From the IMG/VR virus record IMGVR_UViG_3300028364_000026, positions 24,630 through 88,629 of that record: DNA of 64,000 nucleotides; one strand, written 5' to 3'. The position numbers and the translations under genes were made by a program. The first letter of the stretch is position 1. Each line of letters opens with the position of its first letter. Positions 1 through 47,614 of this stretch are shown here, piece by piece. A model generated the notes under the pieces. The model was not told where the DNA came from, made no database searches, and saw nothing but the letters and a program-made list of their open reading frames with translations. The stretch is from a virus.

Positions 1-2
1 TA

Positions 3-326
3 GTAGAACAAGTTCAAATTCTATTATTAGGGTTTGATATTCAAAGTTCTATTTCCTACAGCTATAATAAAAGCCACAAAAAATATTATTATAATTTAAA
101 CCTACGAAGAGAAGGGTCTGAAAATTACTTGAAATATATCGGGTTTGTTTCTAAAGGTAAACAAGAGCGTTTAAATCGCTTAAAATATAGTACAAGGAGT
201 AATAATTTCATTAAACAAGAAATGACAAATGAAATAGTTAATATTGAACATAAAATAAATTCCGTTTATGATGTTGAAGTCGATACAGTCCACCAATATA
301 ACGCAAATGGTATTAGAAACCATAAT
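3..326 (+). mobile_element. C-terminal part of an intein (endonuclease tail plus blocks F/G)
   Basis: VYDVEVDTVHQYNANGIRNHN followed by Ser+1. Upstream YLKYIGFVSKGKQ resembles the end of an intein LAGLIDADG domain. Confidence 0.85.
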
Positions 327-644
327 AGTCAATTAAAAGCAATTGAAGCTGGGTTCCACAAAAAAGCTATTATAGCACAAGATTTTGGTCCATATCAATT
401 AGACTTAACAAGTGCAATTAAGTATGGTGGTGAGATTGACTATACAGCAAATTCGATTTTAATCGACCCTAGAAAAAATAATAAAGATTGGTATTCAGCT
501 ATTAAAAAATTAATTACTAATCCAGAGTTAACTAAAAAATTACAAGAGAATCTACATGATACGGTAAAAAATACTTACTCTATTAAAACGGTTACTGAAG
601 CTAGAAGGAAATTATACTATGACTTATTAGGTAAATCTGACTAA
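3..644 (+). CDS. Glycosyltransferase (GT-B/GT4-like C-terminus) carrying an intein; 5' end outside window
   Basis: Frame is open from position 3, so the TTG at 129 is not the true start. After the intein end, SQLKAIEAGFHKKAIIAQDFGPY resembles the GT4 'lEA...kpvIas' motif. Confidence 0.7.
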   Translation, partial: VEQVQILLLGFDIQSSISYSYNKSHKKYYYNLNLRREGSENYLKYIGFVSKGKQERLNRLKYSTRSNNFIKQEMTNEIVNIEHKINSVYDVEVDTVHQYNANGIRNHNSQLKAIEAGFHKKAIIAQDFGPYQLDLTSAIKYGGEIDYTANSILIDPRKNNKDWYSAIKKLITNPELTKKLQENLHDTVKNTYSIKTVTEARRKLYYDLLGKSD

Positions 645-6929: not shown

Positions 6930-7880
6930 ATGGGTTGGGTTCATAATAAAACAATAGGGTTAATGTTGGCTTTTTCAAAAGTTGAAAAAAATTCATTATC
7001 GCAAGAGAGAAATATGTTAAGTGATAACGCATCAAAGCATTCAGAAAAAGAAACTGGTAAATTAATGCATGATTTATTAAATAATGTAGTTTCGCAAGAA
7101 GTAAAAAATCTAAGGTGGAGAACCTATAAAGTCTTTAGTGCATCTAAAAATTTTAAAACGACCATTACAAGTTATGATGAAAATGATTTACCAATCGTTT
7201 CTAGTGAACAAACAATAGGTAAGGCGACCATTTTCAATAAATTTAAGTTTGACAAATTCGATTCTTATCCAGTAGAACACATATATTATAATCAAGAATC
7301 AACGTTAAGTCTAAATGATATTTCAGCTAGTAAAGACCTTATAATGCTAGACAATCCCACCCAACAAGAAGACGGTAGCGAGACAATTGGGACTATCGAT
7401 GGGTTGGCCATGTTTTCTTATAATAAAGGTGATTTCCCAATTATTATAAACAGAATGACAGTACCTAATTTTAATATTGAAAATTACACAAAAAAAATAG
7501 TTGTTAGGAAAATAAACTCAGAACAACGATTACTAGAATTTTATGTTAGCAAATACCCAGATGAATACAACAGAAGAAGTAGGTTGTTTTTAAGTGCGTT
7601 AAAAAAAGCTATTGATAAACCATATAGTGCTAGTATGCTAGAAATTAATTCAGTTGAATACGTAACATACTTGGCTATTGGGGTTAATGATTTTTTACAT
7701 TATAAATACGAACTAGAAAAATTTGATAAGATAATTGAGTTTGACGGTTCTTACGTAATTAAATTTATTTGTAATGTAACCAAAGATGGTATTAGTGTAA
7801 TCGACAAATATAAAGAAGAAGGGATAGAAAAAAAATATGCAAATAAGGTTAAAGAAAATAATAATAAAACGGTTAAATAA
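6930..7880 (+). CDS. Hypothetical protein
   Basis: 316-aa ORF with A-rich leader. Confidence 0.75.
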   Translation: MGWVHNKTIGLMLAFSKVEKNSLSQERNMLSDNASKHSEKETGKLMHDLLNNVVSQEVKNLRWRTYKVFSASKNFKTTITSYDENDLPIVSSEQTIGKATIFNKFKFDKFDSYPVEHIYYNQESTLSLNDISASKDLIMLDNPTQQEDGSETIGTIDGLAMFSYNKGDFPIIINRMTVPNFNIENYTKKIVVRKINSEQRLLEFYVSKYPDEYNRRSRLFLSALKKAIDKPYSASMLEINSVEYVTYLAIGVNDFLHYKYELEKFDKIIEFDGSYVIKFICNVTKDGISVIDKYKEEGIEKKYANKVKENNNKTVK

Positions 7881-27880: not shown

Positions 27881-30800
27881 TTATTCTAATAATTTATTTA
27901 TATCATCAATCATAGTATTAACTGATTTGTTTATTTTTACTGATTTATCGTAAATCTTAACCCTTTCATTTTTTAAAGTGTTATCCTCAGTTTTAATAGA
28001 TTCTACCAATACATCAACCCATTTATTTTGATATTTTTTAGTTTTTTGAACCATTTTATTATTTAATTCAACTCTTTTATTAGTTAATAATTTATCTACT
28101 CTAACTAAATTTTCTGTCAAATTAGCTGGTTCCGCTTCTTCAACAGAACCTAAATCTTCTCCACCTAAATCTTCTCCACCTAAATCTTCACCACCAGTTT
28201 CTAAACTGTCGTCTCCACCTTCAGTTTCTCCATCACCAAAGTCTAAATCTTCACCACCAGAACCTCCACCTCCAAATGAAGCACCTCCTCCACCCCCAAA
28301 TGAAGCACCTCCTCCAGAAGCATCTCCACCCTCTTCACCTTCAGATGGGTTACCACCTTCTAGTGCGGCTTTAAAATCACCATATATTCTATCTACAGTA
28401 TCAAACATACCAGTATGTTTAATAACACTTGAGGTGTTAGCTAATTCAGCTGAAGCAGCTTTTTCCATTCTTTGTTCAAGTAAATCAGATTTTATTTCAT
28501 CATTAGACCAACCCAGTATTTCTCTATGAGCACGTGTCCAAGACATAACAGCAAAACCATTTCCAATATCAGCAACAGCATCTTTAACCAACGTAACTTT
28601 TTGTTGTAGGTGCTCAACCTTAAGCATTTCAGCTTGGGTTGATGGGTTATTTAACGTTAATGTAAAATTATCTAAGTCCTCATCAAAACCTAATAAATAT
28701 AGATGTATAATCGCTATTTTATTTAATTCTTGCAACATAGATTGTTGAATACGGTTAATCGTTCTAGAAAATCGGATATCTTGTATCGCTAAATTCTTTC
28801 CATCACCAGCAGCTTCTTCAAAACCTAAAAATGGTTTTGGTACTCTTAGGGCTGTAAATAAATTTCTTTGAAGGTACTCTATATCAGAAATCTGGTCTAA
28901 ATTACTGTTTTTCAAGTAGTTACCAGCTTCTGTTGCAAATGTATGATAATTATGGTATAATTCATCACCATCAACAGTTATTGTTCCAGTATCTATTTTA
29001 ATGGATGACCATTCAATAATACTTACTTTACGTATATTATCTTCTGTGTCATTAACACTATCATTGTTAAATGTCATCAATGAATCACCAACGACTAAAT
29101 CTTTAGCTTCAACAAAACCTTTAGTTTTATGCACCCATTTATGGTCGGGTGTTGTTGTAATTGACTGACCATTATCTAAGGTTACTTTCATAACTTCAGT
29201 ATTCATTCTAGTTTCACCAGCCCAAGTAATAATACCTGAAGCTAAAGCACCTGTATTAGGGTCACAAGAGTGTACCCACATATCTTTATTACCATTGTTC
29301 CATTCTGAAATAATTTCATTAAGTTCTAGTGTTCTACCATCTAATAATGGAATCCGAGTATCTAAAGCGATACAAGCACCAGGCAAAGTATCAATCGGGT
29401 TAGGAGCATCTTCTGTTCTTACTGGTATAAAATAATCTTGGTCGTTACTTAATTGATGATGTTTTAAATCTATTTGACCAGTCTGTGGGTCAACAATAGG
29501 CATACGTTTAAATCTATCCGCTATTGAGTTTACGTAACTTTCTACATCGGCTTCATCAATGTTACCAACATAAATTTTATAAACACGTCTTTCTGGTGCT
29601 CTAGTAACTCTATAAACCAACATTGCATCTTCAGAAAGAATTAATTGTTTCCAAATACGTCTTGCTTTCTCTAAAATAGAATTGTGGACAACGATACCAT
29701 TTGCATAGAAATTATGGTTATCATTTTCAACATATATATCGTATGTTTCGTGTTCACCACTTTCCTCAATTGATTTAATCGGTTCTAAAATAAAATCATT
29801 AGTTAACCTATTATCAACAACTAATAAATCACCTAATTTAAAATCTAGCGTATTTTTATAATCGAATTTATTTAATTCGGTATCATAATACATTATTTTA
29901 TGTTCTTTAGATGCGTCTATAAAATTATGTTCGGTGCTGAGTTTATAAGTTTTTTTATTACCAGAATTAACAGTATCCAATACTTTTGACAATACTTTCA
30001 CTTGATTAATTACATCAAATGAATAAACCATATCACCAATAACAATATCTTTTATCTCCTTATACCCCTCACTTGTCTCAACGCTAGAATCATATTTTAA
30101 ACACGTACCGTAAGGCAAACGTCTATCATCCCCTAATAAACGGAAATGAGCTATTTGCCATGAATTAAATTCTATATCACTTCCTCTCCAATAAAATTTG
30201 ACTTTATCTACAGTTGAGTTTTCTGTATTAGCTGAGCCAGTGACCATTTCAAATAAACCAACTTCTCTACGTTCCATCTCATAATTAGGTAATTGCTTAC
30301 CACCAACAACCCCTTGTTTTTCATCAATATTTAAAAAAACAAAATTATCACCATACTTACAATTTGATAAAAACACACCAGAATTTATTGAGTATGAACC
30401 ATTTAAATCTTTACCACAAATTGGGAAATTATGTCTATCGTGTTCTCCATTAGGCCCAACAGCTTCTAGACAATACACATTTGAAGTTTCAGCTAACTTA
30501 ATTACCGAAACGACTTTATGGTTAATTACTTTTTTTATTAAATTTATATCTTCGGCATTAAACGACATAAGTGATTCACCCACAACTAAACTATCAGCTC
30601 TTTTAAATGAACCATCCATAACCATATATTCATGGTCTGGTGTCGTATCAATATATGTTTCATCTTCTAGCGTTACACGATATAATTCACTATCTTCTCT
30701 GGTTAAATCACACCATATGATTTTACTAGGTACGATAACTTGGGTCTCATCCTGAATAGCGAAAGACCAAATTTCCTCACCTAATTTAACCCTAACAGAT

Positions 30801-31330
30801 AAGTCTTTTATAGTTGTTTCTGTCCCATCCAATAAAGGGATTATAGAATCTTCTCTAATTGGAGTATTTCTAACCCACATAGGTAATGACGTATGTAAAT
30901 CTAACCTATTAAAAAACAAATCTTCAAGTATACCCTTTACTCTATTACTATCAGAATAAATATTTAACACCCTACCATTATCGTTAACTGTAGTAGATTC
31001 TTCCATCATTACATCTAATGCGGCTGCGATTGTTGGGTAAAACTCCATTGCTTCAAAATCCGAATATGAGCCAATACGAGTTGTTTCATAATTCATAGAT
31101 TGCTGAAATAAGCCACTCTCAACTTTTTTCCACATCCCACCCAAATATTTATTTTGTTGAGCTTGTAGTTTTGCTCTCTCAAAGTCAGCTTTATTATCTG
31201 TTTTTAATATTTCGGTATTACCACCTAAATTATATCTTTGAGTTGGTTGTTTTTGGGTTAATCTATTTGATTCTGGACCAACAATTTGACCTAATCTTTG
31301 AAAAATTGTTAATTTATTGGTATTTGCCAT
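27881..31330 (-). CDS. Portal protein (T4 gp20-like) with three inteins; about 685 aa after splicing
   Basis: CKYGD, EDAMLVYRVTRAPERRVYKI, QDYFIP, IDTLPGA, ALRVPK, DIRFSRTI. Confidence 0.92.
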   Translation of the reverse strand: MANTNKLTIFQRLGQIVGPESNRLTQKQPTQRYNLGGNTEILKTDNKADFERAKLQAQQNKYLGGMWKKVESGLFQQSMNYETTRIGSYSDFEAMEFYPTIAAALDVMMEESTTVNDNGRVLNIYSDSNRVKGILEDLFFNRLDLHTSLPMWVRNTPIREDSIIPLLDGTETTIKDLSVRVKLGEEIWSFAIQDETQVIVPSKIIWCDLTREDSELYRVTLEDETYIDTTPDHEYMVMDGSFKRADSLVVGESLMSFNAEDINLIKKVINHKVVSVIKLAETSNVYCLEAVGPNGEHDRHNFPICGKDLNGSYSINSGVFLSNCKYGDNFVFLNIDEKQGVVGGKQLPNYEMERREVGLFEMVTGSANTENSTVDKVKFYWRGSDIEFNSWQIAHFRLLGDDRRLPYGTCLKYDSSVETSEGYKEIKDIVIGDMVYSFDVINQVKVLSKVLDTVNSGNKKTYKLSTEHNFIDASKEHKIMYYDTELNKFDYKNTLDFKLGDLLVVDNRLTNDFILEPIKSIEESGEHETYDIYVENDNHNFYANGIVVHNSILEKARRIWKQLILSEDAMLVYRVTRAPERRVYKIYVGNIDEADVESYVNSIADRFKRMPIVDPQTGQIDLKHHQLSNDQDYFIPVRTEDAPNPIDTLPGACIALDTRIPLLDGRTLELNEIISEWNNGNKDMWVHSCDPNTGALASGIITWAGETRMNTEVMKVTLDNGQSITTTPDHKWVHKTKGFVEAKDLVVGDSLMTFNNDSVNDTEDNIRKVSIIEWSSIKIDTGTITVDGDELYHNYHTFATEAGNYLKNSNLDQISDIEYLQRNLFTALRVPKPFLGFEEAAGDGKNLAIQDIRFSRTINRIQQSMLQELNKIAIIHLYLLGFDEDLDNFTLTLNNPSTQAEMLKVEHLQQKVTLVKDAVADIGNGFAVMSWTRAHREILGWSNDEIKSDLLEQRMEKAASAELANTSSVIKHTGMFDTVDRIYGDFKAALEGGNPSEGEEGGDASGGGASFGGGGGASFGGGGSGGEDLDFGDGETEGGDDSLETGGEDLGGEDLGGEDLGSVEEAEPANLTENLVRVDKLLTNKRVELNNKMVQKTKKYQNKWVDVLVESIKTEDNTLKNERVKIYDKSVKINKSVNTMIDDINKLLE
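28907..29374 (-). mobile_element. Portal intein 3 (156-aa mini-intein), ends KN
   Basis: CIALDTRI...TTPDHKW...HTFATEAGNYLKN|S; removal gives TLPGA|SNL. Confidence 0.88.
29681..30103 (-). mobile_element. Portal intein 2 (141-aa mini-intein)
   Basis: CLKYDSSV...ASKEH...TYDIYV...HNFYANGIVVHN|S. Confidence 0.92.
30362..30862 (-). mobile_element. Portal intein 1 (167 aa), Pro1, block F Cys, ends SN; Cys+1
   Basis: PIREDSIIPLLDG aligns with CIALDTRIPLLDG of intein 3; TTPDHEY; VYCLE; removal gives WVRNT|CKYGD. Confidence 0.8.
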
Positions 31331-31379: not shown

Positions 31380-34300
31380 TTATTTTCTACGTCCAAATAA
31401 CCAACCATATTGACCATTTGGGTCTCTTGGGTTTTTAAAGGTTTCTTTAGGTTTTGAGTATATTTTAGAATCAATAGGTCTAGAGTCTACTCTTTCATTT
31501 ACTATTGGTTTATTCGAACCACCATTCAACCAAGAACTTAACATTGCTTTGTTTTGTTTCTCCAATCTTTCAAGACTCTTAAATGAATGTTCAGCAACCC
31601 ATAAAGCCATAGCAATGGCCATGATTAAATCATCGTGAGCACCTTCTTGGTGGTCTGGGCGACCATTTTTGTAAATAAAGGTATTCAGTTCGGTAATCAT
31701 TCTAGCCGAACGAATTTTTATAGTATTGGTCCTAATACTATATTCTAAGTTTGATATCATAGGTAAACGCACACTTGTTGCATGAAATCCTGGGATTTTA
31801 TTATCAGAACTACCACTTACAAGTTCTCTTTGTCTAGCTGAAAGTATTTTACCGTTTGAATTGTCGTAATGTAACAATTTATATTCGAATTCAAGTAACT
31901 TTAATACAGTTGAAACACCCATACCACCAGTAACATCGACTACTGTATATGCTTTATACTTTGAACCATATTCCTCAACTATTTGTGCCAGTAAATCAGG
32001 TTGTATTTTACCTTGATACTCCATAACTTCTTCCATTACAGTAATATCAATAATAACTACAGTAGATTCATCGGCACCATCACCTCTACTTACATCACAA
32101 TTATGTGTTGTTATATGGTGACACATAAAAGTGTTAGTTTCACATTCAAAATTATAAACATCCCCAGTAAACTTAGACTTGTTTATGTTGTTAACTTTAA
32201 AATAAATATAATCTTTATTGTCATCAAAATGACAAGAGTTAATGGTTTGTTTATTATTTGAGTTAAAATCATTAAAATTTAATTCATTTAATTCAGTATC
32301 ATCAGTTTTATAAATTAGTTTTATTAAATCTAAACTGTCATGACTAGCTAAAGTTAAATCATAGCTTTCTGTCCCCCCCAATTTACCTAAAGATGAAACA
32401 ACCCCCAATGAAAATATAATATCTTGTACTGACTCTAATAATTCTAAATTTACACCAACAAAACTCAGTTTTAGGTATTGTTTAGTTTTACTCAAACATC
32501 CATTACTATCAAAGTAACCTCTAATTAATTCTTTTTTGTTTTCATCAGAGATAAACTTAACCCACTCTGATATTTTATTGTCATTTGAATTTTGACCAAA
32601 GTTTTCTAATATAAAATAATATAAAAATTTATAATTAAATTCTATTGTTTTGTTATTATGGCTAAATAATGGTGAACAGTTAAATAATCGGGTTATAATA
32701 TTTTTATATTTTTCGACATAACCTTTTTGGGTTTTATCAAAATTTAGTGATATTGAATGGGAATCTTTAGTTAACGAACCATTACCTAACCACATACCAA
32801 TAAACCACCAAAAATCGTTATCGAGTAATGGTGAATCGATATTACAAGGTACATCATTAGTTACTACCCATTTATCTTCATAAGTGGAATTAATTGATTT
32901 TTTGTAGGTGTTAGGGACTTTTACCCAATCACCTACTTCAACCTCTTCTACCCTTGTATAATTGAAATCTAAATCTAAATTACTTTTACTAATTAAAATT
33001 GGGTGTTCCTTGGTGAATGTTGTTGTTCTAAACGTACTATCCATTTGTATTTCAAATATATCCTCATCAATTACAGGATAAATTTGTCTATTAATTATAT
33101 TTACGTAATTACCATCTTCACTTACTAACTTATCGTTAATGTCAACATCTTTAATATTTACTAACCCTTTATCAGTTAATACTTTTTCGTATGGGGTTAA
33201 ACACCCCAATATATATTGGTGTCCTTCAATAGGTTCAGCCCATACCCATATTTCCTTATTTGCACCAAAAGTTGCAATTGGTTCTTTTACGTTATTCTTT
33301 TCCTGAAACAAAATAAATTCTTCTGCAATAACGTTACCTCCAGAACCAATGAACGACACATCAAGTTCTTGTGCAATCATTTTTGCGTCATTATTCATAC
33401 CCATACACATACCTTCATACCAAGTAGAAGTAGCTTTCCAACCATCATCTAAACGAAGTTTATAAGATTCAAAAGTGAATTCATACTCGCTTTCTACAAT
33501 ATCGTCTTTTAACCAACGTAAGTCTTTATTATAACGCAAATCTTCATGCCATTTCATTTCAACAATATTGAAATTATTTTTCTTATATTTTGCTTGGTCG
33601 TAAGTTTTATAATATAAAGAATCCATACCATTTGGTGTTTGATGACCTAATATACCATTATAAATAACGGAATGACACCAAAAATCATTAGTTTCAGGTA
33701 ATGAAACATCATATGTTTTATTTTTAAGTTTTTCTAATTTAGTTATTGGAACCCATTTTGAATCTTTAAAATTAATTTTATCAATTGAATATCTGGATAA
33801 ATCAAGATTTAAAACATTAATAAAATAATCTATAAATTCATTAAAAATATTTACTGATAAATTAGCTGTTTTGTTTTTATTATAAATTCTAATTTTATTA
33901 ACTAGTAAACCAGTGTTAGGTAATTTTCTAACTAATTTATGTTCGTTTATGATATTTCTAATTATATTTTTACCGTTTGGTATTATTCTATTATTATAGG
34001 ATACTAATTTATTTTGTCCTCTTTTTATTTGTTTCCTATTAAATCTAAAACCAATGGTGTCGTAATATTTATCCGCATCAATAGATGTTGATGAAATCTT
34101 ATAATATTGACTACTAACTTTAACTTTTTTAGTTGGTAGTGTTATTCCTTCTGAATAATCAGTTAATATACCAAGATTTAAAAATAAAAACCTTATTTGT
34201 TGAATTAATTTTTTAGAGGACAAATTTATACCTATCGTACCTCTAATATTATCAGAATAACCATCACCATCCATAATACCTTGTAACATAGCAATAATAT

Positions 34301-36734
34301 TTTCACGCCCCATTTCAAGTAAACGTTTAGGTATTAACTTATTTGGGGCTTTTAAGGTTAAATTAAACCCCAAATACTCTAATAAACCACCTAAATATTT
34401 AGATGAAATTTTATAGTGTAAATTATCGTGTGATGAATAATTAAACCCAGCATTAGATATGTATGTGCCAACATTATCACCACATGTTATCGTAATATCA
34501 CAACCATAAATATTTTTTGGTTCATAACTAGACCCTTCTGATAAATATAAACCAATTAGATAAGCTAAATCAGTATTTATTTTATCATAAATTATTTTTG
34601 GTTTATCTTCTGTATTTGAAAACTCATAGGTAAAATCAATGGTATCGTTATTACCAAAAATATTAAACGAATGTTGTACATTAACATAATCACCGATTTC
34701 TAATTCACTAACCGTAAACCAATCATATTTGTTTTTTTTATTTGAATAAGACCACAATTTATGTGTTTCAGTTGACTCAAGTTCTGAATTATTAGTTGTT
34801 AATTTTATAGTTTCTTGAAAACCATTATTAACAATTAAATTTGATTTCCTAGATACATTATTTCCTCTAATATTATATTCTTTAACATAATAACCTAAAT
34901 TAGGTATATCTGGTTCATCATAATTAATAATGTCTTTCATTTGTTGTAAACCATTGTCAGTAAAAATAAAAGTATCTTCAGTAACACAGGATATAAGTGT
35001 CGCTCTACCCCCAGTATTATGACTTATAATACCGTTTGAAATAAATGAATTTGTTTCTGGTACATGTAAATCATAAGTATAATCTTCTGACTCAGTTATA
35101 GAAATAATTTCATCGATATAAAACATTTTTTCATTACTTACATTAACAAATCTTGCGTTTTTTTTCTTATTTAATAAAAATTCTTTATTATTTTGTTTTC
35201 TATCTAATCTGAAACCAATTTCGTCATAAAATTTAATTGCATTATTTGAATAAATTTTTAAGTTGTAAATTTTACAAATATTTTTTTTATTTTTTATTAT
35301 TGATGATTTAGAAGTTTTTTCTTTTTCATATTTAATATGTGATATAATACCAAAATTAAATAATAAAGTTTGTAGTGTTTGAATTAATTTTTTGGATGTG
35401 CTTGAATATTTAATATCCTTTACAGTACTCACCCCATCACCATCGAATATACCTTGTAAAAACACTTTAATGACATCTTTAGGCATCTTTAATAAAGCTA
35501 AAGGTATTTCCTTATCCCTAGCATTATTTTTCGCCAACCCAAACATTTTAAACCATTCTATTAACTCAGTTGAGTTAAATTGATAATGACGGTCATCAAC
35601 TTTTTTAAATGCGTTACCTAAACAAGCTTTATCTGTTAATAGAAAATTTGTTATGTAATCGTCAATATTTGTGATGGTAATACCACTTGAATTAAAATTA
35701 CCCTGAGCTAAGAATAATCCTAATAAATAAGAAAAATCTAAATTATCACCAAGGTTTTTAGGTATTGTGATGTTTTCACCATTTTTGTGTTTATCGAAAA
35801 CAAAATTTACTTCGCTATTATTACTAAAATAATTTTGACCATATTGAATTATTGGTTTGTCACCAATTTTTAATTCGTTCATCCGTACCCAATTCTCAAC
35901 TCCATGGTTATCAATTAAAATAGGATGTTTCCAACTGCCCTCTAATTCAACACCTAATTTAGTTTTAATTTTAAATGTTTGACCATATTCACTAACAAAA
36001 GTTTGAGTTGCGTTAACAATATCACCATCTTTATTACAAACTTTATGTGGTAACTCCAAATCGGTAAAACCTATTTTATCTTTTTCAGAAACTAATTCAT
36101 CAAGTTGAATTAAACCATTTTCAGTTAAAATTAACGAATCTTTTGTTAAACAACCTAGTGCAGTAAGTGCAGCACCAAAAACTTCCGCTCCGTTATCAAT
36201 ATAAGCGGCCTCATCCATAATAAGGGTTGTTGGGGTAAAACCACGAAGTGCATCCTTAGAAGTTGCTACGGCCTTTACTCTACTATTATTTGGTAATCTA
36301 ATTTCTTTTTTGGCGTTAACAATAAAAATTGTTTTAGCTTCATTCTCTGGAGAACCATAATATTCGTCTCCCCAAACCCATCTTGGTAATTGAGATAGAA
36401 AATCTTTAATTTTTGCCAAGAATTCAAAAGCTAAATCTTGTTTATTCGCAATAATAAGAATATTCTCAGGGTTATTACCGTCAGCTAAGGCTACGATAAT
36501 AGCCATATATGCAGCGGTGGTTGTAGATACACCAGCTTGTCTAGGTTTTGTTACTATATTAAATCTATGGTTTTGATAAGCGGTTATGATTTCTTTTTGT
36601 CTAGGAAATAGAACAAATGGTACAAAACCTTCTTGTGTTTTATCAAAAGTAGTTAAATATGTTTCAATAGCATATGTTGGGTCTTGCAAACACATAGCAT
36701 ATTCATATAAAATTTCCGTTGTTGTCAGATTCAT
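31380..36734 (-). CDS. Terminase large subunit (T4 gp17-like) with three inteins; about 587 aa after splicing
   Basis: KPRQAGVST, LIMDEAAY, IS|TPNG, G|CDVSRGDG, HDDLIMA. Start 36734 preferred because a late box lies at 36746-36754. Confidence 0.93.
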   Translation of the reverse strand: MNLTTTEILYEYAMCLQDPTYAIETYLTTFDKTQEGFVPFVLFPRQKEIITAYQNHRFNIVTKPRQAGVSTTTAAYMAIIVALADGNNPENILIIANKQDLAFEFLAKIKDFLSQLPRWVWGDEYYGSPENEAKTIFIVNAKKEIRLPNNSRVKAVATSKDALRGFTPTTLIMDEAAYIDNGAEVFGAALTALGCLTKDSLILTENGLIQLDELVSEKDKIGFTDLELPHKVCNKDGDIVNATQTFVSEYGQTFKIKTKLGVELEGSWKHPILIDNHGVENWVRMNELKIGDKPIIQYGQNYFSNNSEVNFVFDKHKNGENITIPKNLGDNLDFSYLLGLFLAQGNFNSSGITITNIDDYITNFLLTDKACLGNAFKKVDDRHYQFNSTELIEWFKMFGLAKNNARDKEIPLALLKMPKDVIKVFLQGIFDGDGVSTVKDIKYSSTSKKLIQTLQTLLFNFGIISHIKYEKEKTSKSSIIKNKKNICKIYNLKIYSNNAIKFYDEIGFRLDRKQNNKEFLLNKKKNARFVNVSNEKMFYIDEIISITESEDYTYDLHVPETNSFISNGIISHNTGGRATLISCVTEDTFIFTDNGLQQMKDIINYDEPDIPNLGYYVKEYNIRGNNVSRKSNLIVNNGFQETIKLTTNNSELESTETHKLWSYSNKKNKYDWFTVSELEIGDYVNVQHSFNIFGNNDTIDFTYEFSNTEDKPKIIYDKINTDLAYLIGLYLSEGSSYEPKNIYGCDITITCGDNVGTYISNAGFNYSSHDNLHYKISSKYLGGLLEYLGFNLTLKAPNKLIPKRLLEMGRENIIAMLQGIMDGDGYSDNIRGTIGINLSSKKLIQQIRFLFLNLGILTDYSEGITLPTKKVKVSSQYYKISSTSIDADKYYDTIGFRFNRKQIKRGQNKLVSYNNRIIPNGKNIIRNIINEHKLVRKLPNTGLLVNKIRIYNKNKTANLSVNIFNEFIDYFINVLNLDLSRYSIDKINFKDSKWVPITKLEKLKNKTYDVSLPETNDFWCHSVIYNGILGHQTPNGMDSLYYKTYDQAKYKKNNFNIVEMKWHEDLRYNKDLRWLKDDIVESEYEFTFESYKLRLDDGWKATSTWYEGMCMGMNNDAKMIAQELDVSFIGSGGNVIAEEFILFQEKNNVKEPIATFGANKEIWVWAEPIEGHQYILGCLTPYEKVLTDKGLVNIKDVDINDKLVSEDGNYVNIINRQIYPVIDEDIFEIQMDSTFRTTTFTKEHPILISKSNLDLDFNYTRVEEVEVGDWVKVPNTYKKSINSTYEDKWVVTNDVPCNIDSPLLDNDFWWFIGMWLGNGSLTKDSHSISLNFDKTQKGYVEKYKNIITRLFNCSPLFSHNNKTIEFNYKFLYYFILENFGQNSNDNKISEWVKFISDENKKELIRGYFDSNGCLSKTKQYLKLSFVGVNLELLESVQDIIFSLGVVSSLGKLGGTESYDLTLASHDSLDLIKLIYKTDDTELNELNFNDFNSNNKQTINSCHFDDNKDYIYFKVNNINKSKFTGDVYNFECETNTFMCHHITTHNCDVSRGDGADESTVVIIDITVMEEVMEYQGKIQPDLLAQIVEEYGSKYKAYTVVDVTGGMGVSTVLKLLEFEYKLLHYDNSNGKILSARQRELVSGSSDNKIPGFHATSVRLPMISNLEYSIRTNTIKIRSARMITELNTFIYKNGRPDHQEGAHDDLIMAIAMALWVAEHSFKSLERLEKQNKAMLSSWLNGGSNKPIVNERVDSRPIDSKIYSKPKETFKNPRDPNGQYGWLFGRRK
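32100..33203 (-). mobile_element. TerL intein 3 (368 aa) with LAGLIDADG-like endonuclease
   Basis: CLTPYEKV...FIGMWLGNG...IRGYFDSNG...HITTHN|C. Confidence 0.9.
33639..34988 (-). mobile_element. TerL intein 2 (450 aa) with LAGLIDADG endonuclease, C-terminal Gln
   Basis: CVTEDTFI...LIGLYLSEG...LQGIMDGDG...NGILGHQ|T. Confidence 0.9.
35016..36152 (-). mobile_element. TerL intein 1 (379 aa) with LAGLIDADG endonuclease
   Basis: CLTKDSLI...LLGLFLAQG...LQGIFDGDG...NGIISHN|T. Confidence 0.92.
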
Positions 36735-36808
36735 ATTCTTTTTAATATAAATATGTGACAACAACGGAAACTCTATTATTGGTTATTTTAGACTAAACTA
36801 AAAAAAAA

Positions 36809-42410: not shown

Positions 42411-43463
42411 TTAATTACTTAAGGGTAAATCTATTTTATCATGTGATTGGTAATTCTCTAAAATAAAATCATCTTTACTTAATTCTGATATTTTACTAAA
42501 ATCATTTCCCAACTCACGATAAAATTCGTCTGATTTAATGTGTTTTATCATTGGTAATTCGAATGACTTTCTATTTAATTGCTCTTTTATTGGTTCTAAG
42601 TGATTTGAATACAAATGAACGTCACCTAAAGCTGCAATTAACTCGTATGGTACCATATTAACAATCTTACCTAATATGGTCAGTAAAAGCCCGTATGAGG
42701 CAACATTAAATGGGATACCCAAACCTAAATCCCCAGACCGTTGACTCCACATTAGTGAAATCTTTCTGGTAGGTAATTCATCATCACCACCCTCTACAAT
42801 CATTCCATGTTTTTCAACCATTAAATCCGTGTATTCGTCCACTGTTAATTCTCTAGTATAAACTTGAAAATTAAAGTGACATGGTGGTAAAACAGATTTA
42901 CTTATATCACCTACGTTCCAAGCATTAACAATAAGTCTTCTTGAATCTGGATTTTCTTTTAAGTTTTCAATTAAGGAAGTTATTTGGTCTATTTCATGTG
43001 TTGAAATATTAATATTAGATGAATCTAAAGCTTCCCATTTTCTCCATTGGGAACCGTATATTGGTCCTAATTCACCATATTTATCACCAAAATCAACATC
43101 GGTTTTAATTTTTTCAATAAAGTCTTTCATTGAAAGAACAATGGTTTCTGAACTACTACCATAATTGTTCTTTTCGTTATTTTTTAAGTAGGCTTTATAG
43201 CAGTCACCATTCCAAATGTTACACCCACCCAACACCAAAGGTCTAATGTTAGTTTCCCCACGTAAGAACCAAAGAAGTTCAGTTACCATCGTTTTCCAAG
43301 CCATTTTCTTCGTGGTCAACAACGGAAAACCATCGGACATATCATGTCTAATCATTCTACCGAATACGCTTTTAGTTCCAGTTCCTGTTCTATCTCCTTT
43401 AATGACCCCATTTTCTAGTATGTCAGTTACCAAAGATAGATAACTTGCATCTATTTTATTCAT
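42411..43463 (-). CDS. thyA: Thymidylate synthase
   Basis: DRTGTGT, ELLWFL, GPIYGSQW, SRR, LPPCH, QRSGD...PFN, HLYSNH. Confidence 0.95.
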   Translation of the reverse strand: MNKIDASYLSLVTDILENGVIKGDRTGTGTKSVFGRMIRHDMSDGFPLLTTKKMAWKTMVTELLWFLRGETNIRPLVLGGCNIWNGDCYKAYLKNNEKNNYGSSSETIVLSMKDFIEKIKTDVDFGDKYGELGPIYGSQWRKWEALDSSNINISTHEIDQITSLIENLKENPDSRRLIVNAWNVGDISKSVLPPCHFNFQVYTRELTVDEYTDLMVEKHGMIVEGGDDELPTRKISLMWSQRSGDLGLGIPFNVASYGLLLTILGKIVNMVPYELIAALGDVHLYSNHLEPIKEQLNRKSFELPMIKHIKSDEFYRELGNDFSKISELSKDDFILENYQSHDKIDLPLSN

Positions 43464-44657: not shown

Positions 44658-45446
44658 ATGAGAGAAGTATATCCAGAAGTAAAAAAAATAATGAAAGACG
44701 CTATTGATGAAGCAAAGTCTTTTGATGATGTTAAAATTAGACCAGAACATATAATTTTAGCCATTCTGGTTGACGATAATAATGAATGTAATATTATATT
44801 TAAAACTTTAAAAGTTGATAACCTAGTATTATATGATAAAATTGCTGAATTTTTAAGGCAAAATGATTTAACACCTAGAGTTGGTGGTAAAAAAACTTTA
44901 CCTTTTTCAGATGAAACAAAACAAATCATTAAAGGGATTGATTTAGAATGTGATAAGTTGAATAATACTTCAGTTTCAAGTAAGCACATAATGTTGTCCA
45001 TATTATCAACTAACTTACCAATAAATTCAGTTTTAAGTGAACACGCAGTAACATATAATACTTTTAAAAAAATGATAATAAACATGAGTGACGAACAAGT
45101 GAATAATAGTTTTGAGAGCGACCAAGTTGATGATTCGGGTCCCTTAAAAAATAAAAAACCAATTGACAACAAAAGTAAAACACCCGTTTTAAATAACTTT
45201 TGTAGAGACATTAGTAAATCAGTTGAACGTGGTGAAATCGACCCAGTGGTAGGTCGTAGTGAAGAAATTAAAACTATAACACAAATCCTTTCTTGTAGAA
45301 AGAAAAACAATCCAGTACTTATTGGAGAACCTGGGGTTGGTAAGTGTGTTACCTCTGATACTGAAGTAGTTATGCGTAACGATATAACTGGTGAAGTATT
45401 TAAAACAACAATAAATAATTTATTAAATACTATCACTAACAACTAG
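44658..45446 (+). CDS. clpC: ClpC N-terminal half fused to split-intein N fragment
   Basis: Clp N-domain repeats (PEHIILAIL, SKHIMLSIL), DPVVGR, KKNNPVLIGEPGVGK, then CVTSDTEV. Confidence 0.9.
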   Translation: MREVYPEVKKIMKDAIDEAKSFDDVKIRPEHIILAILVDDNNECNIIFKTLKVDNLVLYDKIAEFLRQNDLTPRVGGKKTLPFSDETKQIIKGIDLECDKLNNTSVSSKHIMLSILSTNLPINSVLSEHAVTYNTFKKMIINMSDEQVNNSFESDQVDDSGPLKNKKPIDNKSKTPVLNNFCRDISKSVERGEIDPVVGRSEEIKTITQILSCRKKNNPVLIGEPGVGKCVTSDTEVVMRNDITGEVFKTTINNLLNTITNN

Positions 45447-45826
45447 AATATATGAATGAATTAAAAAAAATAACTAAATCCGTTGATATGTCTGGATTTA
45501 GTGTATTAACGGATAATGGTTTTCAGAAGTTAGAAAAACTACATGAAACCATACCATATGACGTATATCAGTTAAAACTAAGTGATGGTAAGGGACTTAA
45601 ATGTGCTGATAACCATATTGTTTTTACAGTTAATGGTGATGAAATATTTGTTAAAAACCTAAAAGTAGGGGATTCAATTATTACTCAATACGATGAATTA
45701 GGTCAAGCAAAAGAATCTGAGGTAACTGAGTTAACCAATTTAGGTTATGAAGAAATAATGTATGACTTTGAATTGACTGAAGGGTCCAATAGAAGATACT
45801 ATACCAATGGGATATTATCGCACAAT
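45345..45826 (+). mobile_element. Naturally split intein: IntN 33 aa (45345-45443), IntC 125 aa (45452-45826)
   Basis: Block A lies before the TAG. Block B (CADNH), F (MYDF) and G (ILSHN|T) follow a new ATG in a different frame. Confidence 0.88.
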
Positions 45827-47614
45827 ACATCTATTATTGAAGGTCTTGCCCAACTTATTTATGATGGTAATGCTCCTAGAGTACTACTTAATAAGAAAAT
45901 TTACAGTTTAGAATTAGCTAATGTTGTCGCTGGTACTAAATATCGTGGTGAATTTGAAGAAAGAATGAAAGCTATATTAGAAGAAACAAGAGCCAATAAA
46001 GATATTATTTTATTTATAGATGAATTGCATACTATCGTTGGTGCTGGTAACTCATCTGGTGCTTTGGATGCTTCAAACATTTTTAAACCAGCTTTAGCTA
46101 GGGGTGAAATTCAAATTATTGGTGCAACCACTCTAGATGAATATAGAGAAAATATAGAAAAAGATGGTGCTCTTACAAGACGTTTTCAACAAGTATTAGT
46201 TGAAGAACCCTCACTTGCTGAAACAAAAATAATTTTGATGAATATAAAGTCAAAATACGAAGAACACCATAAGGTTATTTATACAGAGGAAGCTATTGAT
46301 GAATGTGTTAAATTAGCTGATAGATATATTATGGAAAGAAGTATGCCAGACAAAGCTATCGATGTTATGGATAGAGCTGGTGCTAATACAAACATCGGTA
46401 ACGATAAACCAGAAATAGTCAAAACACTCGAAGAAAGTAAAAAATTATTAAACATTAAGAAAAAAGAGGTCATTCAAAAACAAAAGTTTGAAGAAGCGGC
46501 AAGACTTAGAGATGAAGAACGTAATTTAAACGACCAACTACAAAAAGAAACGGCCATTTGGGAGGAGACTTCAAATAATAATATAACCGAAATTAGTGTT
46601 GATTTAATTTCAGAAGTGGTTTCTTTAATGACTGGTATCCCATTAACTAAAATTTCAACTCAAGAAACTAAAAAGTTGATGGATATGAACCAAAATCTTA
46701 CTGGTAAAGTTATTGGTCAAGATGTTGCGGTTACCAAAGCGGTTAAAGCAATAAAACGCTCTCGTATTGGGATTAAAGATAAAAACAAACCAGTTTCTCT
46801 TATGTTTTTGGGTCAAACTGGTGTAGGTAAAACCCTGTTAGCTAAGTTGTTAGCAGAACAAGTATACGGTGATTCTGATTCATTAATTAGATTAGATATG
46901 TCAGAATATATGGAACCTAATTCTGTTAATAAAATGATTGGTTCACCCCCAGGCTACGTAGGCTATGGTGAAGGTGGTCAACTAACCGAAAAAGTACGTA
47001 GAAAACCGCACTGTGTTATCTTATTTGACGAAATCGAAAAAGCCCATGATGACGTGTTTAATGCTCTATTACAATTATTGGACGAAGGTCAATTAACCGA
47101 TAGTATTGGGCGTAAAGTTAATTTTAAAAATTCGTTAATTATTTTAACTTCAAATGTTGGTGTTAAAGAATTACACAATGCTGGTAAATCGTTGGGTTTT
47201 GGAACCGAAGTATCAGTATCAAATAACGAATTAAGAACCAAATCAATTATTGACAAAGCACTTAAGAAAAAGTTTAAACCAGAATTCCTTAACAGAATCG
47301 ATGAGTCAATAATCTTTAATAATTTAACTATGGATGACATAGAAAAAATTGTTCATTTAGAAATAGCTAAATTAGAAAAAAGGATTAATGAAATGAATTA
47401 TAAACTTTTGATTGATGATGCTTCAGTTAAGTTTCTGGCAAAAGAAGGTTATGATGAAGCTTATGGTGCCAGACCATTGTCAAGAGCGATTCAAAGACAT
47501 GTAGAAGATTCAATTGCCGATGAAATATTAAGTGAACACATAAAAGAAGGTGAAACAATCTCGATAACTTTTGATGAATCATTAGGGAAACTAGAGTTTA
47601 CCATAATAAAATAA
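45452..47614 (+). CDS. clpC: Split-intein C fragment fused to ClpC C-terminal part (rest of NBD1, UVR, NBD2)
   Basis: TSIIEGLA, LFIDELH, GATT, FEEAARLRD, GQTGVGKT, LFDEIEKAH, LGF loop, YGARPL. Confidence 0.92.
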   Translation: MNELKKITKSVDMSGFSVLTDNGFQKLEKLHETIPYDVYQLKLSDGKGLKCADNHIVFTVNGDEIFVKNLKVGDSIITQYDELGQAKESEVTELTNLGYEEIMYDFELTEGSNRRYYTNGILSHNTSIIEGLAQLIYDGNAPRVLLNKKIYSLELANVVAGTKYRGEFEERMKAILEETRANKDIILFIDELHTIVGAGNSSGALDASNIFKPALARGEIQIIGATTLDEYRENIEKDGALTRRFQQVLVEEPSLAETKIILMNIKSKYEEHHKVIYTEEAIDECVKLADRYIMERSMPDKAIDVMDRAGANTNIGNDKPEIVKTLEESKKLLNIKKKEVIQKQKFEEAARLRDEERNLNDQLQKETAIWEETSNNNITEISVDLISEVVSLMTGIPLTKISTQETKKLMDMNQNLTGKVIGQDVAVTKAVKAIKRSRIGIKDKNKPVSLMFLGQTGVGKTLLAKLLAEQVYGDSDSLIRLDMSEYMEPNSVNKMIGSPPGYVGYGEGGQLTEKVRRKPHCVILFDEIEKAHDDVFNALLQLLDEGQLTDSIGRKVNFKNSLIILTSNVGVKELHNAGKSLGFGTEVSVSNNELRTKSIIDKALKKKFKPEFLNRIDESIIFNNLTMDDIEKIVHLEIAKLEKRINEMNYKLLIDDASVKFLAKEGYDEAYGARPLSRAIQRHVEDSIADEILSEHIKEGETISITFDESLGKLEFTIIK

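Follow-up and report, generated by a model that had tools for sequence, protein, structure and literature searches.

Few natural split inteins have an N-terminal half (IntN) short enough to be synthesised chemically, and those that do are in demand for labelling proteins and for their semisynthesis (PMC10189870, PMC11766414). The closest described examples reside in phage terminase large subunits (TerL) from water metagenomes, namely AceL-TerL, GOS-TerL and Cat-TerL, in which the class-1 sequence blocks are divided naturally between A and B into a short IntN and a long C-terminal half (IntC); their IntN/IntC lengths in residues are given as 25/104 with Cys1 and Cys+1, 37/115 with Ser1 and Cys+1, and 30/104, respectively (PMC11766414). 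A wider setting is provided by the fractured genes of Dassa 2009 (PMC2677866), where a split intein divides one gene, at its original place, into two genes of the same orientation, for the most part in phage DNA of aquatic metagenomes, and where Vsr-like endonucleases are described for half of the loci. Here we report on a two-gene locus within a 64,000-nucleotide (nt) stretch of viral DNA, referred to below as the window, which forms the last 64 kb of the 88,629-nt linear record IMGVR_UViG_3300028364_000026 of IMG/VR. The two genes are best read as the halves of one ClpC-type class-1 Hsp100 protein in which the Walker A motif of the first AAA module (D1) is interrupted by a selfish, trans-splicing split mini-intein, a reading to which we would assign a probability of about 0.85.

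The genes (Table 1) lie on one strand and in different frames (44658 mod 3 = 0 for gene 1 and 45452 mod 3 = 2 for gene 2), with the five letters AATAT between them. Gene 1, of 262 residues, ends in GEPGVGK-CVTSDTEVVMRNDITGEVFKTTINNLLNTITNN ahead of its TAG, with a Cys directly after GEPGVGK. Gene 2, of 720 residues, begins with 125 residues that include KCADNH (50-55), MYDFEL (103-108) and ILSHN (121-125), the tail of this segment reading MYDFEL...RRYYTNGILSHN, and continues as TSIIEGLA. The 33-residue end of protein 1 holds block A only and the 125-residue beginning of protein 2 holds blocks B, F and G. If both were excised, the flanking host segments (exteins) of 229 and 595 residues would be joined into a ClpC of 824 residues, with the junction GEPGVGK/TSIIEGLA (slashes mark splice junctions and insertion points throughout). 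Every detail of the original prediction that was checked against the list of open reading frames (ORFs) and the sequence, including the two-gene layout, the TAG-AATAT-ATG junction, the sequence blocks, the product length and an LGF tripeptide, was correct. The excision is colinear with intein-less genes: among 80 related IMG/VR loci (the best 80 of at least 593 relatives, a set in which one of the two patterns employed, G[ED]PGVGKC, favours intein-bearing alleles), the matches to the N- and C-exteins abut with zero gap and in one frame in 68, and four of these 68 read exactly GEPGVGK/TSIIEGLA.

The residues on which splicing would depend are invariant among relatives. Gene 1 has 2101 matches in a length band of 144-459 residues, from which 30 N-halves, the window's own included, were examined because they cover the whole query and have Clp_N as their sole Pfam domain. 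In every one of the 30, GK is followed by a Cys and the protein ends 30-42 residues beyond GK; Cys1 and T244 never vary, and D234 and T235 hardly do. The first 135 residues of gene 2 retrieved 738 proteins, and 120 among the matches listed start with the same IntC. In an alignment of 37 C-halves of the D1 type, whose mean column identity is 58%, residues C51, A52, D53, H55, D105, H124, N125 and T126 are invariant, the last of these being both Thr+1 of the predicted splice junction and the T of the Walker A GKT. Selection was estimated from 19 distinct D1-type loci (171 pairs), of which the 74 pairs with an intein synonymous divergence (dS) of 0.05-1.5 were used; the median ratio of nonsynonymous to synonymous divergence (dN/dS) is 0.25 for IntC and, in 70 of those pairs, 0.17 for the exteins. 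IntC is under purifying selection.

Searches of the PDB with phmmer place IntC nearest to CatC, the C-terminal half of the Cat intein (6DSL_B, E 1.5e-6), with IntC residues 13-124 aligned to CatC residues 14-111 and with the common stretches KC.DNH and YYTNGI.SH; further matches are to gp41-1 (E 2.9e-4), PolB16 (E 5e-3) and, weakly, VidaL (E 0.9). A contiguous relative of the intein (locus L028, described below) again has CatC as its best match (E 3.1e-5) and gives the same ranking. Judged by its blocks, its invariant residues and its kinship with CatC, the ClpC insert has every appearance of an atypically split intein of class-1 type, whose IntN is short and whose IntC is long (33/125, Cys1/Thr+1), inserted between the Lys and the Thr of the D1 Walker A motif, as had been proposed for it.

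The ClpC intein shares with AceL-TerL, GOS-TerL and Cat-TerL the position of the break, the short IntN and long IntC (125 residues, against 104-115 in those inteins), the class-1 blocks, an origin in phage DNA from water metagenomes and a P-loop ATPase as host; with Cat-TerL it shares sequence kinship of IntC as well. It differs from all three in residing in a ClpC-type Hsp100 and not in TerL and in having Thr and not Cys at the +1 position, and it differs from CatC in that IntC is ~20 residues longer and has Ala where CatC has Ser in block B (ADNH, compared with SDNH). A terminase host and Cys+1 are traits of the described members and not of the mechanism. VidaL (6VGV) and the PolB16 intein of OarG (8CPN) are likewise naturally split, of metagenome origin and endowed with a short IntN (15 residues in PolB16, PMC10189870), but they are much more distant from the ClpC IntC in sequence, and PolB16 further differs in having Ser1 and Ser+1, a block B His that is not needed, and a PolB-type DNA polymerase as host (PMC10189870). 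The locus also resembles the fractured genes in its in-place break into two co-oriented genes, its split intein and its aquatic phage origin, and some of its relatives carry a gene of endonuclease size between the halves, in one case with a DUF559 domain, whereas the window's halves are separated by 5 nt only and by no endonuclease gene.

The original prediction knew of no intein in a Clp chaperone, and we found no report of one in ClpC, ClpA, ClpB or Hsp100 in the open full text, a scope that leaves subscription journals and supplementary tables outside. None is named in the portions of Dassa 2009, Novikova 2016, Pasch 2023 and two jumbo-phage papers that were covered; the words "Clp", "chaperone" and "AAA" are absent from the main text of Dassa 2009 (PMC2677866), and the covered portion of Novikova 2016 mentions in this respect only an intein in chloroplast ClpP. 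What appears to be new is the host protein, the Cys1/Thr+1 pair and the 33/125 split, within a mechanism that is already known.

The distribution of the intein was followed in the IMG/VR set and in 79 metagenome loci from JGI/ENA, two sets that share contigs (e.g., one of 190,177 nt) and whose counts are not additive. At the D1 GK/T site, where 68 of the 80 IMG/VR loci have no insertion, five have the split intein, with 20-57 nt between the genes in three of them (L035, L036 and L068) and an ORF between the halves in the other two (L010 and L065), while in one more (L009) the contig breaks off behind IntN. Both halves are present at the D1 site of 20 metagenome loci, with gaps of 20-424 nt in 11 and of 1494-1589 nt in 9, and the 5-nt spacer of the window is the shortest among the loci examined. 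Wherever a D1-site copy has both of its halves on the locus, it is split (5 of 5 IMG/VR and 20 of 20 JGI metagenome loci) and never contiguous. A search among homologues for the same split, which had been suggested as a check, therefore bears it out, with all 25 D1-site copies split and all 30 N-halves stopping alike.

The same intein family also occupies the Walker A motif of the second AAA module (D2) of clpC, with 51 copies in the metagenome set, so that ClpC comes in three pieces in many relatives. Both sites are occupied in L036 and L090, for example. Contiguous mini-inteins were found at the D2 site in five loci (L028, L090, L113, L117 and L155). Hosts other than ClpC account for seven metagenome loci with the family: a clamp loader of the gp44 type (L160), AAA proteins (L140, L153 and L166), a locus where a weak T4-type TerL match adjoins the intein (L163; Terminase_6N, 20.5 bits against a cut-off of 22) and two loci in which the host protein has no Pfam match (L151 and L167). 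A tree was built from 71 distinct IntC sequences, 21 of them from D1; 20 of these 21, the window's included, fall into one cluster nested among D2-site sequences, with a support of 99 in the Shimodaira-Hasegawa-like approximate likelihood ratio test; the tree is a quick IQ-TREE reconstruction with a midpoint root only, from which the direction of any jump between sites is not readable.

The clpC genes of these phages are host to other insertions as well. Five of the 80 IMG/VR loci (L014, L015, L031, L058 and L064) have at the same GK/T site an unrelated, contiguous intein of 364-366 residues, which starts AQPLDAK, ends THN/T and contains LAGLIDADG-like motifs recognised by eye; its Ala1 start suggests a mechanism other than that of class 1. 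A third type splits clpC D1 two residues farther upstream (L042, 3658-5379, GEPG/C...SHN/TGKT; L127, 1356-1742, SHN/CGKT), and in L042, one of the 80 IMG/VR loci, its IntN has 24 residues and a 382-residue ORF without Pfam match lies between its halves. An insert of ~1.1 kb, ~48 residues past the D2 Walker A motif, breaks the C-extein match in L113 (2509-3650) and L117 (2362-3503) and suggests yet another insertion site in clpC. The intein-less clpC of L062 has a frameshift at the D2 Walker A motif (7683-7685), where a shift of 1 nt separates the extein matches of D1 and D2; a sequencing error is a possible cause. The contiguous mini-intein of L028 (7717-8235), of 173 residues, is located at the D2 Walker A motif and is unbroken in its middle, where the split forms have their stop and new start; as a reference for cis-splicing in this family it would be well suited.

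The intein and the gene that hosts it have different histories. Loci L089 and L095 differ at dS 0.125 in the intein as against 1.86 in the exteins, and L092 and L089 at 0.141 as against 1.54; because near-identical inteins sit in such strongly diverged clpC genes, the intein has moved horizontally. IntC identity to that of the window is 60-75% in all of the 34 C-halves other than P0122 and P0123, at extein identities of 45-79%, and in P0122 and P0123, whose exteins are 99% identical, IntC is just 90-91% identical and has a 6-residue indel. A vehicle for such movement might be represented by the ORF between the halves in L010 and L065, which at 477-484 residues is of homing-endonuclease size and in L010 contains a DUF559 domain (22 bits, cut-off 20.6), a domain that we take to belong to the Vsr-related superfamily. 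From the same lake samples as the contigs that cover the junction comes a second contig, of higher abundance, which matches the window's IntN (14 differences in 106) and then IntC with 1540 extra letters between the two, and these letters suggest that an endonuclease-bearing cousin may co-occur with the window's phage. The observations fit a homing-and-decay cycle of a mobile intein, in which the endonuclease gene might have been lost before the compact form in the window was reached, a loss that the fractured-gene model of Dassa 2009 foresees (PMC2677866).

Pfam identifies Clp_N in gene 1 and AAA, AAA_lid_9, AAA_2 and ClpB_D2-small in gene 2. The spliced exteins are predicted to make up a ClpC-type class-1 Hsp100, which would have in common with known members Clp_N, a pair of AAA modules, a middle region that is short, D2-small and an LGF tripeptide in D2 (residues 581-583 of gene 2, the sole [ILV]GF there), and would differ from them in being encoded in two genes. 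The earlier identification of a ClpC-type gene in two pieces is borne out by these domains, and so is its LGF motif; the UVR motif that it also named is marginal (Pfam, 21.1 bits, cut-off 21.5). The NCBIfam models for ClpB, ClpA, ClpG and ClpK all score below their cut-offs, since only a piece was scanned in each case. The D1 Walker A motif would be restored only by splicing, and that of D2 is intact. In ClpC1 the I/LGF loop is described as docking into ClpP (PMC11005422). No ClpP match was found on the 88.6-kb record, which is uninformative, as the record amounts to only about a quarter of a genome. Three of four related phage records, the three being 64-100% complete, encode a ClpP-family protein of their own (E 1e-59 to 1e-80), and the fourth, 28% complete, gave no ClpP-family match. 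Because each of the three fuller records carries so strong a match, a phage-encoded ClpP would be a likelier partner for this ClpC than a hijacked host ClpP. The ClpP-family genes are at G002:C1:6235-6762, G003:C1:222727-223254 and 199616-200158, and G004:C1:193634-194158; in one of the related records there is also a weaker second copy with a TAA inside it.

Several points weigh against the reading given at the outset. The usual Thr of block B is replaced by Ala in all 37 C-halves, although His55 is invariant within C-A-D-x-H, and the Pfam Intein_splicing match to residues 36-125 of gene 2 scores 22 bits, with the cut-off at 35.8. The 33-residue IntN has no phmmer match in the PDB at E <= 10, a query of this length being too short for the program. 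No Shine-Dalgarno-like sequence is seen ahead of the gene 2 ATG, so that the start is inferred and rests on the beginning M.ELKKITK conserved in relatives. The contigs that carry the junction come from four runs, all of lake water from 2017 and perhaps from one campaign, and two of the four may be the source samples. A rival reading is that the real gene encodes a contiguous 158-residue mini-intein and that the stop and frame change at 45444-45452 are an error of assembly or sequencing: one 1-nt indel within 45440-45446 would indeed fuse both frames, and contiguous members of the family do exist at the D2 site. However, the junction that the original prediction proposed to confirm in reads is present without an indel in the Logan contigs of all four runs. 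Two of these contigs, each of ~19.65 kb and possibly from the source samples, are identical to the window across the whole 3.1 kb compared, and a 361-nt contig from a third lake sample (X3 record 15, 45341-45701) and a 151-nt contig from a fourth (X4 record 22, 45411-45561) have 0 differences. Moreover, there is no homopolymer at the junction, the place at which the N-half ends is the same in 30 of 30 homologues, the gaps between the genes of split relatives range very widely, from 20 to 1589 nt, and P0122 and P0123 likewise begin at the IntC Met. An error of this kind is close to refuted and may be given a vanishingly small probability; the break in the gene is not an assembly error. Two further ways of joining the frames can be set aside. 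Read-through of the TAG, which is the stop of 5 of 85 long ORFs, would reach a TGA two codons on and is rejected for that reason, and programmed frameshifting can be dismissed since the junction lacks a slippery run and the gaps in relatives differ widely.

A real break does not by itself imply splicing, and the substituted block B residue and the low Pfam score would suit a non-covalent clamp of two ClpC fragments, or a decaying remnant whose products remain separate or non-functional. What such a clamp or remnant would not be expected to keep are residues needed only for splicing chemistry, and Cys1, His55, Asp105, His124, Asn125 and Thr+1 are invariant at a mean column identity of 58% and are accompanied by a dN/dS of 0.25 in IntC; neither ORF is disrupted, and conservation of the exteins equals that in intein-less relatives. 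In addition, 158 foreign residues would stand between GK and T, and with its Walker A motif cut in this manner D1 could hardly bind ATP. We regard the absence of splicing as decidedly improbable, and trans-splicing as the most likely mode of action of the intein. The original prediction went further and proposed that trans-splicing gates the assembly of a phage unfoldase that may redirect host ClpP. Since the cut lies in an essential loop, ClpC activity would indeed depend on splicing; the LGF loop is present, and the invariant second Cys (C51, beside block B) could in principle pair with Cys1, which is speculative; such a gate might be conditional on redox state or on temperature. The distribution of the intein points elsewhere: the great majority of the related loci have no insertion at the D1 site, the presence of the intein does not track extein relatedness, relatives with an endonuclease-size gene point to selfish spread, and near-identical inteins have passed between diverged clpC genes, all of which argues for a selfish mobile element and not for regulation. 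As for ClpP, three of the four searchable relatives encode their own. Neither the gate nor the redirection of host ClpP is upheld, and a gate that times assembly for the latter purpose is in our estimation very unlikely. It is a long shot, too, that the intein is more than a parasite, in the sense that a Cys1-Cys51 redox trap or temperature-dependent splicing in cold lakes might confine the activity of ClpC (and of a phage ClpP) to one stage or state of infection. Separately, and equally a long shot, the D1 lineage, as one cluster nested among D2-site inteins, may have evolved naturally into an orthogonal partner set for three-piece ligation, with a synthesisable IntN of 30-35 residues and Thr+1.

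Under the reading that we favour, a selfish intein that splices in trans, the two genes would be co-transcribed and translated side by side, as the spacer of 5 nt implies. The IntN tail of protein 1 would dock into the IntC head of protein 2 and thereby complete the Hedgehog/intein (HINT) fold; Cys1 would undergo an N-S acyl shift, Thr+1 would attack the thioester, Asn125 would cyclise, and an O-N shift would leave a normal peptide bond. The product would be the 824-residue ClpC with an intact GEPGVGKT P-loop, and in the absence of splicing D1 would be unable to bind ATP. The intein would have spread from clpC gene to clpC gene in large, T4-like phages of fresh water, probably through homing with the aid of a free-standing endonuclease gene that was kept between the halves in relatives and lost at the window's locus, and it would be kept functional because the host gene needs splicing.

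If these predictions hold, a protein-quality-control ATPase joins the hosts of P-loop-seeking inteins. The family, with its 33-residue IntN, its many variants and its sister lineages at a second ClpC site and in other ATPases, could serve as a panel for comparisons of splicing speed, extein tolerance and orthogonality. It also offers a well-sampled series of fractured-gene states, comprising the intein-less allele, the contiguous mini-intein, the halves with an endonuclease gene and the compact split. The understanding of how inteins work is left unchanged by the split intein of ClpC.

Table 1. Features of the split clpC locus, in window coordinates
Feature	Position	Strand	Basis
Gene 1, 262 residues: ClpC N-extein, IntN and TAG	44658..45446	+	ORF list, sequence, Pfam Clp_N
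N-extein, 229 residues: Clp_N and start of D1 to Walker A GEPGVGK	44658..45344	+	residue-by-residue alignment with intein-less relatives up to GK
IntN (predicted), 33 residues, Cys1 start, block A CVTSDTEVV	45345..45443	+	conservation in 30 N-halves; tails of 30-42 residues
TAG (45444-45446) and 5-nt spacer AATAT (45447-45451)	45444..45451	+	sequence; contigs of 4 runs without indels
Gene 2, 720 residues, ATG at 45452: IntC, ClpC C-extein and stop	45452..47614	+	ORF list; Pfam AAA, AAA_lid_9, AAA_2, ClpB_D2-small
IntC (predicted), 125 residues, end ILSHN	45452..45826	+	phmmer to 6DSL_B CatC, E 1.5e-6; weak Pfam Intein_splicing; median dN/dS 0.25
CADNH of block B, with His55 as its histidine and Ala at the usual Thr place	45602..45616	+	invariance in 37 C-halves; aligns with CatC KCSDNH
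Blocks F and G: MYDFELTEGSNRRYYTNGILSHN (Asp105, His124, Asn125)	45758..45826	+	D105, H124 and N125 invariant
C-extein, 595 residues: Thr+1 (T of GKT), rest of D1, short M-domain, D2, D2-small	45827..47611	+	T126 invariant; Pfam; NCBIfam below cut-off
Weak UVR match in the M-domain	46433-46534	+	Pfam
D2 Walker A GQTGVGKT, uninterrupted	46811..46834	+	sequence; second intein of the same family here in many relatives
LGF tripeptide in D2, candidate ClpP-docking loop	47192..47200	+	position from sequence; role as described in PMC11005422

The record that contains the window has a G+C content of 29.7% and is rated by CheckV as ~25% complete, from which the genome of the phage is probably several hundred kb in size. 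The sequencing runs in which the stretch occurs are metagenomes of lake water. Comparisons of the clpC locus with the phage collection gave no match by megablast; with gene 2 as a tblastn query the best match, at 54.6% and confined to the extein, was to the 634,780-nt record of an uncultured phage, and no intein was found in named phages, none of which is close; in gene 2 the matches begin at residue 113 or at residue 126. A search of ten neighbouring ORFs against PHROGs identified one thymidylate synthase and otherwise families without assigned function. The thymidylate synthase gene (42411-43463, minus strand; phrog_160, E 7e-97) is divergent from the clpC genes and lies ~1.2 kb upstream of them, with small ORFs between.

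Other genes on the record appear to carry inteins of their own. A T4-type portal gene (27881-31330, minus strand; Portal_T4, E 5e-55) is a 1148-residue ORF with three Intein_splicing stretches, which would mean several contiguous inteins in this essential structural gene. An ORF of 1793 residues (31380-36764, minus strand) has three stretches that match LAGLIDADG_3 (E 1e-32) and two that match Intein_splicing, with no Pfam match for its host protein. At the beginning of the window (1-644, plus strand) a 766-residue frame that enters from upstream, at G000:C1:22973, has an intein with a Cys start, an HN/S end (Intein_splicing, E 9e-14) and endonuclease-like motifs recognised by eye. Outside the window, a 960-residue frame (G000:C1:7045-9927, plus strand) with SNF2-type helicase motifs, again recognised by eye, has a late intein (AEDR/C…VHN/C) with a weak Intein_splicing match. 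Since clpC adds to the portal gene and the frames of 1793, 766 and 960 residues, the 88.6-kb record is predicted to have inteins in at least five genes.

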